A stretch of DNA of 31,261 bases from a virus. Lineage: Duplodnaviria; Caudoviricetes. This document shows positions 4,811 through 10,090 of this stretch, piece after piece. Position 1 is the first letter of the stretch. Each line of letters begins with the position of its first letter. The notes below the pieces were generated by a model, which was not told the origin of the DNA, did not search any database, and saw only the letters and a program-made list of their open reading frames with translations. The translations under genes were made by a program, and so were the position numbers. The stretch spans positions 1 to 31,261 of IMG/VR virus record IMGVR_UViG_3300021139_000078; one strand, given 5' to 3'.

Positions 4811-4876
4811 GTCCATCGTCGGGAGTTGAACCCGAAGCGGTGAAAGGTAATAAGCCCGCTGCGACCTGCCGATGGG
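4811..4876 (-). ncRNA. tRNA-like RNA with acceptor stem and T-arm, no D-stem, 15-nt loop in the anticodon-arm position
   Basis: CCCAUCG/CGAUGGA acceptor (C1:A72 mismatch); UCGGG-UUCAACU-CCCGA T-arm with canonical 7+5 geometry; AGCGG/CCGCU stem with loop GCUUAUUACCUUUCA. Confidence 0.7.
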
Positions 4877-4914
4877 TTTGCTCACGCACCCTGATCATGA
4901 GCAAAGGTGTGGAT

Positions 4915-5376
4915 TTAGAAAGGTGGCTTATCTCCGATGGGAGTTGCACCTAACTTTTCCAAAAGCGCTTGAACGGCAGCTGAATCAACCGATCCCACTG
5001 CTGGTGATGGTGGCTTGATTTGACCCGCAAGATAGGCGGTTGCCTTAGCAACATCGGCAGGGTTTGTGGTGGCATCCACCAAAATCCATGGCGCTGATTT
5101 GCCGGGTTTTGCAATGCCTTGACCCATACGGCTCAACACGGTTTGACCGACCTTGTTGCGAAGTGCGGTGCGCAGTGCCACATTGAAAAACAACACGGAA
5201 TCATGCTCGGTGTTGGTATCGAGGTCGATGAGGTTGACTTCAATTGCCTCAGCTTCACCCAATGATGTTTGGATGCCTGTTTTGTATTCCACTGGCTTGA
5301 TGATGAGCAAGTGGTTGTGAAGATCGGCTGGTCGGACGGATTCCGACTGCCCGGATAATGCGCTGAACTCGGTCAT
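4915..5376 (-). CDS. putative ssDNA-binding protein
   Basis: Beta-rich OB-like core, low-complexity linker, C-terminal PPF; in the recombination/replication cluster. Confidence 0.5.
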   Translation of the reverse strand: MTEFSALSGQSESVRPADLHNHLLIIKPVEYKTGIQTSLGEAEAIEVNLIDLDTNTEHDSVLFFNVALRTALRNKVGQTVLSRMGQGIAKPGKSAPWILVDATTNPADVAKATAYLAGQIKPPSPAVGSVDSAAVQALLEKLGATPIGDKPPF

Positions 5377-5562
5377 TTATTTTCTCCCTGATTGTTGTAG
5401 TTGATTGGTTCGTGCCAAATTTTCAAACTCTTTTTCAACATCTTTGATCGCTTGTGTGATGACGGATTCCATCTGCACACAACAATCGCCACACCACGGC
5501 ATCTGCTCGACATCGCTGCGAATACGAGCGCGGTGATTGCATCTTGGACATGTCACTTTCAT
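5377..5562 (-). CDS. small Zn-ribbon protein
   Basis: MKVTCPRC...WCGDC; start 5562 overlaps the upstream stop (ATGA). Confidence 0.6.
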   Translation of the reverse strand: MKVTCPRCNHRARIRSDVEQMPWCGDCCVQMESVITQAIKDVEKEFENLARTNQLQQSGRK

Positions 5563-5738
5563 GGTTTCGACCCCCAGCCATTTCCGACGAAGATGGCTCC
5601 AATGCCACCCGTCATTTTTCGTTTCATGATTTCGTTGCAGTTTGAACATTTTCTTTCGGTATCACGCGACTCGATCGGTGTATTGATGTCGATTGTGAAA
5701 TCGCATGATGTGCATGAATATGTGTATGTGGGACTCAT
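5559..5738 (-). CDS. FmdB-like zinc-ribbon protein
   Basis: MSPTYTYSCTSC...CSNC...MKR...F-x-G-x-GW; start 5738 overlaps the Cas4-like stop. Confidence 0.8.
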   Translation of the reverse strand: MSPTYTYSCTSCDFTIDINTPIESRDTERKCSNCNEIMKRKMTGGIGAIFVGNGWGSKP

Positions 5739-6448
5739 CTCGCGTCCATATCTCCCGGACAACCGACACGAAGATCGGTGGAGTTTGGCAAATACCAGGA
5801 GCAGTAACTGCATAAGCCACTAGGTTCGGCAGGGATTTCATCGACCTTTACATATTGCAAAGAATCTTCGATAGTTTCCATGCGATTGATGGCATCCATC
5901 GCCGTGCCAATAAAGAATGGCTCAACGACGACATGCAAATTGTCGAGACGACCACCCAATGGGTAATAGGCGCAAGCAATGTTTTTGGGTTGATAGCCCA
6001 TTTTGATCAGTCCGAGCGCATACATGGAAAGTTGTACTCGCTGAGTTTTTGTCATTCCCTCTTTGAGACGCTTTTTCATCGAAGTTGCACCGACACATTT
6101 ATGATCGATCACGAGACCTTGTTCGATGTCGTAGAGATCAACTGTTCCACTCAGACCCGTTGCAGCTTCAACCTTTTGCTCAACAAGATAATTGGGATCA
6201 GTGCCAAAACAATCGGCTAACCACGCATGGATTGCCGTGCCGGAGATTGATGCCCATGGATCAGTGGACACATTGGTTTTTTCTGTGCCGGTGATTTTGT
6301 AAGCAATTTTTCGAGCGCAGGGATCACCAATCTCTGATAACCCAATTCGGGTTTGCAACGAGCGTGGCGCAAATTGTGCGTGACGAGTAATTGTTTGACG
6401 AAGTCGATCGGCGATCGCTTGTGAAGGTTCGACGGGTGAGACGAACAT
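5735..6448 (-). CDS. Cas4/RecB-like PD-(D/E)XK exonuclease
   Basis: GDPCARK, GTAIH, GTVD, IDHK, QLSMY and C-terminal CSYC...C (1+3 Cys). Confidence 0.85.
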   Translation of the reverse strand: MFVSPVEPSQAIADRLRQTITRHAQFAPRSLQTRIGLSEIGDPCARKIAYKITGTEKTNVSTDPWASISGTAIHAWLADCFGTDPNYLVEQKVEAATGLSGTVDLYDIEQGLVIDHKCVGATSMKKRLKEGMTKTQRVQLSMYALGLIKMGYQPKNIACAYYPLGGRLDNLHVVVEPFFIGTAMDAINRMETIEDSLQYVKVDEIPAEPSGLCSYCSWYLPNSTDLRVGCPGDMDAR

Positions 6449-6759
6449 CAGTCCTCCACGACGGTGAAGCGACGAGAGACGGTGACTGTTTCAAGTTTCT
6501 CGACAACATCACTGGGAAACATCTCCCGCAATTTTTTGACATCTACTCGGCGAGCTTCCACCGTTGTCCAGCGAATAGCTTCCCTTCCATTCACAAGACC
6601 GATTTCTGCATCGCCGAGAGCTGCCTTGATCTGTTCAGCCATGAGGTCGGCTTTTTCCGTCCACTCTTTGACTTTGGCTTTTGCTTCGATATACCCGGCA
6701 ACAAATGCTGCCGTTGTTTGGTCGAGATCGACCATTTCCTGATTGATTTGAGTTGACAT
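6448..6759 (-). CDS. coiled-coil protein resembling the C-terminal part of YqaJ-type nucleases
   Basis: Start ATG 6759 after AGGGGA SD; IKAALGDAE...VDVKKLRE...SRRFTV. Confidence 0.6.
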   Translation of the reverse strand: MSTQINQEMVDLDQTTAAFVAGYIEAKAKVKEWTEKADLMAEQIKAALGDAEIGLVNGREAIRWTTVEARRVDVKKLREMFPSDVVEKLETVTVSRRFTVVED

Positions 6760-6766
6760 GATTCCC

Positions 6767-7198
6767 CTAGTAGCTGTGAATTGTTTGTTCGGATTTCCAT
6801 GCAGCACATGTGCCACCTGAGCCGTAGTGACGGCTGATATATGCCAGCGATGCGACAACTTGTGCCAGCGAACTTGATGATTTCTTGAGTCCGATGTTGT
6901 TGTATGTTGATTCGAGCAACTGACCCACGCCATATGCGCCACTGGATGTGTTCAATGCGTGTGGATTGTGATGAGATTCAGCGGTGATGATGTTGATGAA
7001 ACATTGCGCTGATTTGGGTGTAAGCAATTCATTGATGAATAAATCAATGCGCTGAGTTTCCGTCATGACAATTGCCTCTTTGACGGTGACGACACGAATC
7101 TCTTTGATCTGACGAGTGGCTGACCAAATGGACGCGACGAGTGATAGCACGGTAAGAATTGCAACGAACGATGCAAAACGATTGAGTTTTTGGTTCAT
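6767..7198 (-). CDS. membrane-anchored lytic transglycosylase (SLT/lysozyme-like)
   Basis: N-terminal TM helix; AES...NP.A.N.SSGAYGVGQ and YISRHYG motifs. Confidence 0.85.
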   Translation of the reverse strand: MNQKLNRFASFVAILTVLSLVASIWSATRQIKEIRVVTVKEAIVMTETQRIDLFINELLTPKSAQCFINIITAESHHNPHALNTSSGAYGVGQLLESTYNNIGLKKSSSSLAQVVASLAYISRHYGSGGTCAAWKSEQTIHSY

Positions 7199-7596
7199 GA
7201 TATATATCCCTTCTCTTTCGCCCTGAATAGCTGACGCGAGACTGAATCTCGATGTATTCCCATGGAATGTGCGATGGCATCATCGCTCCAGCCCATTTCA
7301 CGCTTCATCAGAATTTCGAAGAGTCGATGAGGAATTCGCTCAAAACTTTTTCCTTGATTTTCAATCATGGAAGCAATTTCGTGAGGTGAGAAGCCACCCC
7401 ATACGCCGTCAGTGATGTTGTTGTTGATGGCAAAATCCGCACAATCCTTTTTGTGTGGACATTGATCGCAGATCGCTTGCAATTCGGGCAAACGCTCTTT
7501 GAGTTGCTTATCGCCGACTGGAAAGAAATAGTCGGGATCGCCCGAAGTGCATTTGGCTTCGGGAAAGTTAGGAAAGGCGATGTGGTCATTGATCAC
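7195..7596 (-). CDS. whiB: WhiB-family regulator with C-terminal HTH
   Basis: C...DPDYFFP...CDQC.....C and GVWGG; C-terminal GWSDDAIAHSMGIHRDSVSRQL; GTG 7596 preceded by GGGGA. Confidence 0.9.
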   Translation of the reverse strand: MINDHIAFPNFPEAKCTSGDPDYFFPVGDKQLKERLPELQAICDQCPHKKDCADFAINNNITDGVWGGFSPHEIASMIENQGKSFERIPHRLFEILMKREMGWSDDAIAHSMGIHRDSVSRQLFRAKEKGYIS

Positions 7597-7945
7597 GCGA
7601 ATCCCCATAACCAGCATCACGGATCAGATTCATCATTTCTGAAAGGGGCATCACTGCCCACCAATCGCCAACACGGGTGATTCCCACGCCATTGGGTTTG
7701 ACGATCAAAATGCCGAAATCTGCTTTCGCATTGTTTTTCTCAATTTCGGTTTCCTTGATCCATTCAGGAAATTTGTAGCTCTTGTGATTCTTGACCTCCA
7801 TGACAAGTCCGGGAATTCCAGTGATGTCCCCGAGGTCACTGCTGCCGGCAAGCGCTCGTCTCTCTGCACCGGGGAAGCCCTGTCCCGCGATGTAATTGAC
7901 GACCGCCGTCTCGGCAGCAGTTCCCTTTGCCTTGGCTTTGCTCAT
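7586..7945 (-). CDS. Holliday junction resolvase, actinophage PD-(D/E)XK type
   Basis: KAKGTAAE, AERRAL.G..D.GDI.G, EVKN. Confidence 0.8.
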   Translation of the reverse strand: MSKAKAKGTAAETAVVNYIAGQGFPGAERRALAGSSDLGDITGIPGLVMEVKNHKSYKFPEWIKETEIEKNNAKADFGILIVKPNGVGITRVGDWWAVMPLSEMMNLIRDAGYGDSRDQ

Positions 7946-7951
7946 CGGTGA

Positions 7952-8155
7952 CTAAGCGCAATCGCCAAGTTCGGGCAGATGCCGACGGATGACATCTCCG
8001 TTTCGGTACAAAATCTCACGCAGTTCATCAGCTTCTCCATAGGCATGGAAAAGTTCGGCTTTCACATTGTCGAGTTCGTTGTTCATGCCCCACCAAGTCA
8101 CGCATGCGCCAAAAAGGAAAGTGAGGAAAGAGAAGAAAATCCAAAACTGAGCCAT
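7952..8155 (-). CDS. small membrane protein
   Basis: N-terminal hydrophobic helix; AAGGGGGA SD. Confidence 0.7.
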   Translation of the reverse strand: MAQFWIFFSFLTFLFGACVTWWGMNNELDNVKAELFHAYGEADELREILYRNGDVIRRHLPELGDCA

Positions 8156-8308
8156 TTATTTGTCCCCCTTGATTGCGCGTTGAAATTTATGAAATGACTC
8201 GATCTCATCTTCGATGCGATAGAAATCCTCACGCTCAAAAAAGTTGATAATGGTGAGAGTGGTGATGCTTGCGACGAAGCACCCCGCCAAAATTGCTAAA
8301 ACGATCAT
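8156..8308 (-). CDS. small membrane protein (50 aa, not in ORF track)
   Basis: MIVLAILAGCFVASITTLTIINFFEREDFYRIEDEIESFHKFQRAIKGDK; TGGGGG SD; stop abuts the next ATG. Confidence 0.7.
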   Translation of the reverse strand: MIVLAILAGCFVASITTLTIINFFEREDFYRIEDEIESFHKFQRAIKGDK

Positions 8309-8439
8309 TTATTGCCCCCAGAAATGAGTGAAGCCCCATGGAAAGCGCTGGGGGCAGCACGAACCATGGAGCTTCTAATGATTGAACCAATTCTGAAATC
8401 GCAAAATTCCCGTGGAAGTGATGCTGAAATTCGATCCAC
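8305..8439 (-). CDS. putative leader ORF (44 aa, not in ORF track)
   Basis: GTG 8439 after AAGGGGGG; open to a TGA overlapping the next ATG (ATGA); spans a strong RNA hairpin. Confidence 0.45.
   Translation of the reverse strand: MDRISASLPREFCDFRIGSIIRSSMVRAAPSAFHGASLISGGNK
8330..8375 (-). promoter_or_regulatory. leader RNA hairpin with C-rich anti-SD loop
   Basis: 12-bp and 6-bp stems whose mismatches are G-U pairs only on the minus strand; CCCC loop. Confidence 0.6.
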
Positions 8440-8494
8440 CAACTGCCCCCCTTGCGACTAGGATGGGAGTTGAAAAGGTTTACTTAGCTTTCAA

Positions 8495-8549
8495 TTTGTC
8501 TGAATTTGACCACTCGGACACAAGTAGTCAAAAAGAGATATCAGACAAA
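8495..8549. promoter_or_regulatory. divergent promoter/operator region
   Basis: TTTGTCTGA...TCAGACAAA and TTTGAC...GTCAAA inverted repeats; opposed -35-like TTGACC (+) and TTGACT (-); lies between divergent units. Confidence 0.45.
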
Positions 8550-8576
8550 AATCGCCGAAAATCCATCTCGGCGTGG

Positions 8577-8624
8577 CTTTCATAAACCTATTCAATGCCC
8601 CCATATTGAATTAGTAGGTGAAAG
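8577..8624 (+). promoter_or_regulatory. integrase 5' leader hairpin occluding the SD, loop GCCCCCAU
   Basis: CUUUC/GAAAG, ACCUA/UAGGU and UUCAAU/AUUGAA stacked stems ending 3 nt before the ATG. Confidence 0.55.
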
Positions 8625-8627
8625 ATA

Positions 8628-9689
8628 ATGAACAACGAAAAGAATGTCTATACCAACACGCCGAGCCGTGTCAGAAACTTTCAATCTCAAGTTGAGGCTG
8701 AGACCTCTAGCCTAATCGAGCCACAAGAGCGTAGCGTTCCTCATGCTCGCAATCAGGCGAGTCGCAGTTATCGTCGGGAGCGAGACCCTGACTTCGGATT
8801 GGGAATTGAGTTGGAAAGTATTTATTTGAGGATGCCCGAATTTACGCAATCGTGGCATATTGAGGTCGGAAACCTTTTGCATAGAAGGTACGAATTAGCA
8901 GGTTTTGCCCGTTCAACATTTATGAAAGATTTCTCCATGCTTCGGCATATATGCAAGGAACGCCATCCGCGGGATGTCTATTTGCAGGATTTGGAAGAGT
9001 ATGTGCTGGGAGCCACCAAACTTTCGACACGAGCTGCCTATATCGCCCGAGTGAAATCAGTGTGGAATTCCTTGCGTATTCTCGGAATCATCCCGAATGA
9101 CTTTCGCCCGGATGAAGGCTTGCCCAAAACCAAAGAGCCACGCTATACCCCGCGCCCGATCAGCAAAGAGCAAGCCATCATGCTGATGACTCAGGCTGAA
9201 GAGCCGATGCGCGAATGGTTCATGTTCGCATGTTTGGCAGGGTTGAGAGCTATCGAAATCAGTCGCATTCAGGGAAATTGGCTGGAGCAACATGCGGGTG
9301 AGTATTTTCTTCGAGTACTAGGAAAAGGAAACACCGAGCTTCTCGTCCCCCTGCATCCCAAACTGGTGCAGATCATTTTGTCCAAAAAGACTCAAGGTCG
9401 CCTGTACACGATTGAAGCGAACTATCTTTCTCGGATCGCCTGTGCTGAAATGCGCCGACTCGGAATCTTCACCAAAAAGAATGGCTCAAATCGCTCACGA
9501 TTGTCATTTCATAGTTGCCGACATTTCTTTGCAACATCGGTGCTTGCTGCTAGTAATAACCTCATAACCACGCAAAGATTGATGCGACATGCTTCCCCGG
9601 TTGTCACGGCTCGGTATGCCGATCTCGTCAACCACGAGGAACGCGCCGTCATTCAAACTTTGCTGGACGATATCGAATGGAGTAAGTGA
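8628..9689 (+). CDS. int: tyrosine recombinase/integrase (XerC/D-like catalytic domain)
   Basis: AGLRAIEI (R), GKG (K), HSCRH (HxxR), LMRHAS (H), TARY (Y) all intact. Confidence 0.92.
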   Translation: MNNEKNVYTNTPSRVRNFQSQVEAETSSLIEPQERSVPHARNQASRSYRRERDPDFGLGIELESIYLRMPEFTQSWHIEVGNLLHRRYELAGFARSTFMKDFSMLRHICKERHPRDVYLQDLEEYVLGATKLSTRAAYIARVKSVWNSLRILGIIPNDFRPDEGLPKTKEPRYTPRPISKEQAIMLMTQAEEPMREWFMFACLAGLRAIEISRIQGNWLEQHAGEYFLRVLGKGNTELLVPLHPKLVQIILSKKTQGRLYTIEANYLSRIACAEMRRLGIFTKKNGSNRSRLSFHSCRHFFATSVLAASNNLITTQRLMRHASPVVTARYADLVNHEERAVIQTLLDDIEWSK

Positions 9690-10069
9690 TGAACGATTTA
9701 GAGAAGTGTGTGAAGAAACAAATGAATGTCGGGATATATCAATGGCTTCCCGATCGAATTGCTGGTGACATCACGGGTTCACGCGATCATCAAGCGGCAT
9801 TGATCAAGATTTTCAAAAAGCACAAAAATAACATGATTCCCGTTGAGTTGATTTGGAAATCCCAAACCATCATGGAGTATTACTGCGACGGAATGATGAT
9901 CGGTTTTATACCCACCGACCACCTTGATCGATGGAATGAATTTTTCAATTACATGGGTGATGCACCCAAACGAATGGTGGGAACTGTTCAAATTTCCTAC
10001 TGGGATAAGGGAAAAATGTATTTGCCGGGAATGCCCGCAATGCAGGTGATCTATAAGCCAAAAAAATAG
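9686..10069 (+). CDS. hypothetical protein, possibly HIRAN-like
   Basis: ITGSRDHQAAL and YCDGMMIGFIP resemble HIRAN motifs; start overlaps the integrase stop. Confidence 0.5.
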   Translation: MMNDLEKCVKKQMNVGIYQWLPDRIAGDITGSRDHQAALIKIFKKHKNNMIPVELIWKSQTIMEYYCDGMMIGFIPTDHLDRWNEFFNYMGDAPKRMVGTVQISYWDKGKMYLPGMPAMQVIYKPKK

Positions 10070-10090
10070 CCCCAGCCCGAAGGCTGAGGC
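10060..10090 (-). terminator. intrinsic terminator of the late operon
   Basis: GCCUCAGCC-UUCG-GGCUGGGGC followed by UAUUUUUUU, between convergent genes. Confidence 0.85.

Follow-up and report, generated by a model that had tools for sequence, protein, structure and literature searches.

Head-on lytic and lysogenic transcription is familiar from the pR-pL pair of coliphage 186, and in lambda sib makes int expression depend on an intact att; both phages use CI and other proteins, and in neither does att lie between the promoters. [quoted passage not shown] A locus that may share this general design is found in the IMG/VR record IMGVR_UViG_3300021139_000078, a tailed-phage genome whose full 31,261 nucleotides (nt) are called the window below: a tyrosine integrase gene diverging from the early lytic genes, with a predicted attP core between two predicted promoters that face each other. 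The explanation we consider best, with a probability of roughly one half, is a repressor-less switch worked by recombination at a host tRNA-Leu gene. The fuller version is more tentative, and we would put it at somewhat less than even odds: one-protein lysogeny in a family of freshwater actinophages, in which crossover at tRNA-Leu disconnects both promoters, the severed leader locks integrase (Int) translation off until excision, and a small RNA serves as a brake in some lineages.

If its predicted parts act in this way, the locus works like integration-dependent immunity, yet it falls outside that class, having no repressor gene around attP, no attP inside rep and no cro. Moreover, the lytic promoter itself is here predicted to be cut off, immunity is not predicted, Int has no clear C-terminal tag, and identity to the tRNA runs to 9-16 nt, against 35-39 bp. 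The T7-like cyanophages and HTVC019P-type pelagiphages are likewise aquatic, with streamlined hosts and rare prophages, and use tRNA attB sites (often tRNA-Leu) with short cores of 11-46 bp (PMC8776855 and 10.1101/410191, in the available portions). They differ in being podoviruses with attP 3′ of int, and facing promoters around attP are not described in those portions; some T7-like phages also have a MarR regulator, according to the accessible part of PMC10134795. A literature search, with most subscription papers outside it, returned no paper on the arrangement described here.

Integrase, predicted attachment core and putative facing promoters

The only genes on the plus strand are int and the gene behind it (Table 1), and the claim of the original prediction that an intact tyrosine recombinase sits in a two-gene divergent unit is borne out by PF00589, by an invariant R-K-H-R-H-Y set (R207, K233, H295, R298, H321 and Y330 in all 57 aligned integrase homologues) and by the adjoining open reading frame (ORF). 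The best PDB match of Int, by fold and by profile (E = 3.7e-26), is the Brujita integrase 5vfz. In its structural model no regular secondary structure precedes residue 62, and the predicted local distance difference test score (pLDDT) is below 50 for residues 1-31; on this model the window Int would lack an N-terminal arm-binding domain. Annotated relatives are integrases of Mycobacterium and Gordonia phages, at 27-33% identity, and the C-termini of 14 sequences are variable beyond a D-x-x-W-like motif, a common tail being absent by eye. The product of the second gene is not a helix-turn-helix (HTH) protein; PF08797 occurs in 40% of one Atlas cluster, template modelling scores of 0.56-0.63 are below the threshold for naming it, and tblastn gave no match in the 14 closest loci. 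In six relatives (L205, L002, L003, L005, L010 and L013) int stands alone in its unit.

Conservation was counted over 124 loci with ssb and downstream DNA, 24 with a divergent integrase, 57 spanning the site without one and 43 too short (duplicates included). After removal of duplicates, 13 integrase loci stand against 45 integrase-less ones, a term that means here without a divergent integrase at the int site, some such phages having another, tail-linked recombinase. That second tyrosine recombinase family (L023-L081, L001:6442-7227, L005:9148-9900), 36-41% identical to the window Int, is widespread, has its place, read in the late direction, between the tail genes and the lysis genes, and in some phages accompanies the first type.

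The predicted attP core is an inverted repeat whose spacer begins with the last 7 nt of tRNA-Leu(GAG). In the intergenic alignment the repeat arms drift with compensation and the spacer is fixed; the exact spacer with inverted arms is present in 8 of 13 integrase phages and in none of the 45 others, nine of which have a weak match with one mismatch. [quoted passage not shown] In L019 the longest word matched the tRNA 5′ end instead. All eight spacer positions agree with a host tRNA 3′ end in 12 of 14 cases, and by spacer identity (6-7/8, versus 7-8/8 for the 3′ end) the 5′ end is the less likely target. Of 390 genomes from the order of G001, 189 contain the tRNA-Leu(GAG) end (control, 0). Genomes of 1.2-1.4 Mb carry a variant of it that agrees with the L213 core over 16 nt and with the L020 core over 15 nt; the variant spacer of L015 is matched by a host tRNA variant too. 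An initial pattern search for attB was discarded: it hit 38 of the 390 genomes, and its reversed control hit a similar number, i.e., chance.

Two promoter-like elements keep their distance from this core. A plus-strand TANNNT stands at -54 to -57 in 17 of 20 loci, distant ones included (18 of 20 within -60 to -50; chance, 0.21 per locus). All 13 close loci have a minus-strand TANNNT at +99 to +110, and 17 of 20 loci have one within +85 to +110 (chance, 0.45). In the window the first would be the -10 box of P_R, an int promoter that lies on the early-gene side and reads right, and the second that of P_L, a leftward early promoter, which was found by consensus scan and overlaps the int ribosome-binding site (RBS). 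The P_L -10 box is kept in L003 and L206 despite loss of the overlapping ATG. The int leader between them is predicted to fold into a long imperfect stem centred on the core, and outside the central repeat a locus's own left arm ranks 1-2 of 11 as its partner in 11 of 11 loci. In 11 of 12 loci the native left arm does better than 24-25 of 25 shuffled ones, and in 11 of 12 the int start region is easier to open in the whole than in the core-cut leader (for the window, 4.9 versus 8.4 kcal/mol). The folding models thus predict that the whole leader opens the int RBS and that the core-cut leader hides it.

From these parts we propose the following. In the free phage, leftward transcription from P_L would cross the core and enter the early genes, and rightward transcription from P_R would cross it to enter int. 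The two transcripts would overlap by about 145 nt, a more direct mutual interference than pairings in trans. [quoted passage not shown] By the same crossover P_R would leave on the side of the early genes, directed away from them towards host DNA, and P_L would stay with int, again pointing away from its gene into host DNA; the early lytic operon and int would both be promoterless, with no repressor needed. Because the core lies between predicted facing promoters, integration alone would switch off the lytic genes and int. The latter would come to lie behind the host tRNA gene, and the remaining half of the leader would fold over its RBS, making excision rare. In the available part of PMC3694055, arm-less integrases are described as needing no directionality factor and prophage stability as depending on low Int, with which the proposed silencing of int by a core-cut leader fits. 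The tRNA-like RNA treated below may in addition damp int translation in some lineages. Were all this true, repressor-free silencing by geometry alone would be a simpler step before the three-gene integration-dependent switch, itself proposed, in the same portion of that paper, as an ancestral form of the lambda-type switch. A test of the switch would need one integrase and some 200 bp of DNA; phages of the abundant streamlined freshwater Actinobacteria could go dormant without conferring immunity; and lifestyle calls that depend on repressors would miss them.

Several observations weigh against this recombination switch. An intact integrated copy was not found in genome, metagenome or order-wide searches, the last of which returned, among 390 genomes, a single broken copy, L082, at another site. 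Integrated copies in host genomes or metagenome-assembled genomes (MAGs), to which the original prediction had pointed, are thus represented by this broken homologue alone. The joint expected at the attL/attR ends was not found in the contigs of four of the five listed runs, contigs that drop rare forms, and no collection-wide junction scan was made. The tRNA lead was one of 20 loci read after a pattern search at chance level; identity of the window core to the tRNA proper is only 9 nt; three of the 18 loci miss; and L009 and L018 (9 nt) are not above shuffles, one of which reached 15. In L018 (7669-7696) and L019 (2349-2376) the spacer is reversed relative to int with the leader fold kept, so the tRNA promoter would face the early genes, and L021 and L022 have a different 8-nt spacer, which suggests another target. 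Both promoters are guesses from consensus, P_L with the chance rate of 0.45 given above. As to the leader, the folding test fails in L005, there is uncertainty over start codons, the leader alignment gave no consensus pairs in RNAalifold, and the long stem is stronger on the plus strand in only 7 of 11 loci. A distant subclade carries a LuxR-type HTH gene directly 3′ of int (L020:3870-4598, L021:2603-3352, L022:9050-9802, L214:6415-7161). Finally, the loci of the relatives are themselves related, and counts of conservation across them are not independent.

The broken copy (L082:9740-10669) is an Int homologue of 42% identity, interrupted by one internal stop. It lies in a host MAG, immediately after host genes, a chromosomal position that counts in favour of the recombination switch; its neighbours are a retained gene end, which by its look we take to be sigA, and DUF7455 and gyrB-like genes. 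It is likely a prophage remnant at a site other than a tRNA gene. The sigA-like 3′ end was considered as the site of this clade and dropped, having been seen only beside this homologue. A second Int homologue (60%), on the 360-kb contig P0031, is a possible integrated copy.

The tRNA-like RNA and the two proposed pairings

Downstream of ssb the window encodes an RNA that has the acceptor stem, GG loop and T-arm of a tRNA and no anticodon arm. It belongs to a well-supported, possibly new family of tRNA-mimic phage RNAs absent from Rfam 15; the 10,006 candidate viral RNAs tabulated in PMC10690425 may include it. All 11 pairs of the acceptor and T-stems change on both sides among 40 sequences, with 99.8% of cells paired and none of 500 shuffles matching; the acceptor boundary was chosen by complementarity, which leaves the T-stem as the only unbiased test of covariation, and the set is 40 of 55 distinct cores, the 15 excluded being mostly longer forms and near-duplicates. 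The fold z-score is -2.1 with the upstream hairpin and +0.15 alone, and the middle stem-loop is variable in length and sequence. ARAGORN called no tRNA, a full cloverleaf with anticodon loop being absent, and Rfam gave no match at E up to 1 for the window and 12 loci. A real tRNA or an attP remnant was considered and rejected: the element has no anticodon arm, lies 3.6 kb from int and is present without int. It was recognised in 45 of 45 distinct integrase-less relatives (12 of these loci had themselves been found by a pattern for the RNA, the other 33 not); among the 13 integrase loci the pattern detects it in 11 and inspection by eye in 12. It is a separate, family-wide element, not an integrase-specific one, and is likely cut out of the early transcript. 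In L163 (608-679) and L169 (391-462) a second tRNA-like element, with a degenerate anticodon arm, lies 3′ of the first and scores just below the Rfam tRNA threshold, at 27.5-27.7 bits.

The closest precedents for such an RNA are the P4 CI RNA and c4 of P1/P7, antisense RNAs that are likewise small and structured, are processed out of an early transcript and expose loops that can pair with mRNA (PMC4825925 and PMC2864571, available portions), P4 needing no repressor protein for this control (PMC4825925, same portion). As to processing from a precursor by RNase P, a mark of these RNAs, what the tRNA-like RNA offers is a conserved acceptor stem and T-arm. Unlike them, the tRNA-like RNA has no Rfam match, no conserved complementary target among 59 RNAs and no demonstrated role in immunity, and is present regardless of the integrase. 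Purine-rich or CCTTTC motifs stand in its variable loop and in the loop of the adjoining hairpin, and relatives differ in which of the two loops has which. The loops of the window RNA (4811-4905) and its relatives thus present Shine-Dalgarno-like (GGGGAA, GGAGAA) or CCTTTC motifs, the latter resembling a generic anti-Shine-Dalgarno sequence. As early and late phage genes use G-rich RBSs, host mRNAs of the GAAAGG type would be candidate targets of these loops.

According to the original prediction, a loop of this RNA and a segment of the int leader form a bistable switch by mutual antisense inhibition, and both complementarities are indeed present in the window. Of the positions of the loop 13-mer, 12 match the int RBS and start (0.05 matches expected by chance; 0 of 100 shuffles reached 2), and the C-rich leader segment at 8590-8603 pairs best, of 41 start regions tested, with the first two early ones (-17.9 and -16.6 kcal/mol), as it does with many other G-rich RBSs; both matches were picked after the fact, the window being selected for its match. 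For the 15-nt loop the int start is the best duplex on the coding strand, and the 94th once stems are included. Ranked among 59 RNAs against its own int start, the window RNA comes first, a placing that is not conserved clade-wide: the cognate ranks in 14 integrase phages are 1, 10, 52, 53, 20, 34, 2, 5, 6, 59, 39, 1, 39 and 47 (mean, 26.3 versus 30 expected; 29.9 on a longer leader). Half of these phages (7 of 14) rank 34 or worse, i.e., relatives keep the integrase without the pairing, an outcome that goes far towards refuting the proposal. Ranks within the top six occur in 5 of 14, and on the longer leader in 3 of 14 versus 1 of 14, 0 of 12 and 0 of 11 for control genes, L008 and L013 ranking first there; L010 and L210 are near twins. 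In L013 a perfect 12-nt match across the int start codon is made via another part of the RNA, which has two 15-nt matches elsewhere too, so such matches arise readily. The supposed association of the RNA elements with this integrase clade fares no better, the RNA being equally present in integrase-less relatives and the CCTTTC loop not enriched (8 of 13 integrase phages versus 19 of 45 others; Fisher p = 0.34). Nor does the reverse arm covary: over 11 loci the first early RBS has a mean rank of 5.8 of 11 against the C-rich segment, with 6.0 expected. The covariation of that segment is in cis, with plus-strand sequence from the opposite end of the intergenic region (mean rank, 2.3), which explains the segment. 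What the ranks may still allow is a one-way brake on int at the level of single lineages (the window, L013, L008, L022 and L010/L210). Genome-wide, complements of the RNA number 140 per strand versus about 70 in crude shuffles, with equal strands and no common target among 59 RNAs. On the further idea that the CCTTTC loop acts on GAAAG-type RBSs of divergent genes at large, such an RBS precedes the divergent gene in 8 of 19 integrase-less phages with the loop versus 4 of 26 without it.

Repressor searches and competing explanations

No member of the CI/Cro family was found among 59 window ORFs compared with Pfam and PHROGs, nor among 15 compared with NCBIfam, which upholds the earlier claim that none stands at the divergence; "repressor-less" is meant for this genome and its close clade. 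It also holds that HTH signal in the window is limited to the WhiB-HTH protein and, weakly, the product of 1150-1932 (MerR_1 in 14% of one Atlas cluster), and both families are matched in integrase-less relatives too. The first early ORFs (45, 50 and 67 amino acids) belong to no Pfam or PHROGs family. The leader ORF, the like of which occurs in L205, L003 and L005 with a frame not kept in all relatives, had no match in Pfam, PHROGs, NCBIfam or the HTH scan of flanking ORFs; the early leader also has a hairpin with an anti-RBS (z, -2.5). No divergent cro-like HTH gene was seen among the early ORFs or the flanking ORFs of the close clade; the scan, of 107 flanking ORFs out of 213 (long enzyme ORFs and apparent shadows being excluded), gave no HTH match beside int in that clade. 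There is no repressor gene 5′ of int with attP inside it, the gap from core to int start being only 105 nt; the plus-strand ORF that spans the core (8412-8585) has no family in Pfam, PHROGs or NCBIfam, and its frame is not kept in relatives. A single weak HTH_24 match, in L025, lies among late genes. A GAA-N7-TTC-like motif, possibly a binding site, occurs twice in L002, L003, L005, L007-L009 and L015, in the early leader and the predicted P_L spacer; its window copies (8372-8385) are degenerate.

That the phage is effectively lytic, its insertion at tRNA-Leu being transient or a dead end with no real lysogenic switch behind it, we regard as unlikely, though it would account for the failure of the searches made to find a prophage and for the preponderance of relatives without a divergent integrase. 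The T7-like cyanophages, which integrate without lysogeny according to the available part of PMC8776855, speak for this view and against ours; the fixed spacing of promoters and core and the core-dependent fold of the leader, on the other hand, point to selection on an integrated state. Silencing by a protein is quite unlikely in our estimate, whether by WhiB-HTH, by the 1150-1932 product, by a host factor or by Int itself bound to the repeat as a roadblock to P_L. Two HTH proteins are at hand, four distant relatives have the LuxR-type gene behind int, and one copy of the GAA-N7-TTC-like motif falls in the P_L spacer. However, the WhiB and 1150 families recur in integrase-less relatives and have their genes downstream of P_L, the six relatives named above have int as the sole gene of its unit, and the motif is degenerate in the window.

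It is improbable that the repeat is only a lox-like site for self-recombination, or a mere RNA hairpin, with the recombinase resolving genome multimers and the tRNA match due to chance. The identity is short in most members, no junction was found, and a second recombinase family does reside among the tail and lysis genes of many relatives, all of which would suit such a role. Yet self-recombination needs no fixed spacer while the arms drift, and it leaves unexplained both the 15-16 nt over which L020 and L213 agree with the tRNA end and the host counterpart of the L015 spacer. Least of all do we favour the two-way toggle, with the tRNA-like RNA blocking the int RBS and the int leader the early RBSs, which we hold to be very improbable even with both pairings present in the window, the five high ranks, the perfect match of L013 and the precedent of RNA-only control in P4 (PMC4825925, available portion). 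The RNA in every integrase-less relative, the unenriched loop, mean ranks at chance, a reverse arm without covariation and the stray 15-nt matches of L013 all stand against it, and a block on int alone cannot keep a prophage silent. The recombination switch at tRNA-Leu thus remains our preferred reading.

Genome setting and neighbouring elements

The record is near-complete (31,261 bp, 96%), and the five runs containing it are freshwater metagenomes. The terminase, portal, capsid, tail, lysin, primase-polymerase, exonuclease, RusA and WhiB genes are all on the minus strand. WhiB, taken as an actinophage marker in the available part of PMC10202952, and the relatives of the integrase point to an actinobacterial host.

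Table 1. Features of the window discussed in the text
Feature	Position	Strand	Remarks
RNA resembling a tRNA (acceptor stem, GG loop, variable stem-loop, T-arm, no anticodon arm)	4811..4875	-	after ssb
Loop 13-mer of the tRNA-like RNA	4839..4851	-	12/13 complementary to 8617-8629 (int RBS and start)
Hairpin just 5′ of the tRNA-like RNA	4876..4905	-	adjoins the RNA
Gene called ssb	4915..5376	-	phrog_870; label from position and C-terminus; anchor for the tRNA-like RNA
WhiB-HTH regulator, early operon	7195..7620	-	PF02467; occurs with and without integrase
Leader ORF, 45 amino acids, G-rich RBS	8305..8442	-	stop overlaps first early gene
Predicted P_R -10 box TAGGAT, rightward int promoter	8459..8464	+	early-gene side of core; start near 8471
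int leader, predicted to form a long imperfect stem with the core at its centre	8465..8627	+	inverted repeat I23
Predicted attP core: 10-bp arm, 8-bp spacer CGGACACA (8515-8522), 10-bp inverted arm (9/10)	8505..8532		10-8-10 inverted repeat
Predicted P_L, leftward early promoter	8622..8650	-	-35 TAGACA (8650-8645), -10 TATCTT (8627-8622); start near 8615
Tyrosine integrase, predicted arm-less Brujita type, 353 amino acids	8628..9689	+	PF00589, catalytic residues intact
Second gene of the int unit, possibly HIRAN-like, variable cargo	9686..10069	+	PF08797 in 40% of one Atlas cluster

Two terminator-like hairpins are present on the minus strand, one at 8553-8573, about 45 nt past the predicted P_L start, and the other at 10069-10090, at the end of the late operon and facing the int unit. 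Near-consensus promoters driving variable small divergent genes are seen just 3′ of the int stop in L007, L008 and L015 and in the gap region of L090, L101 and L121; these genes resemble cassettes at the same site in integrase-less relatives.

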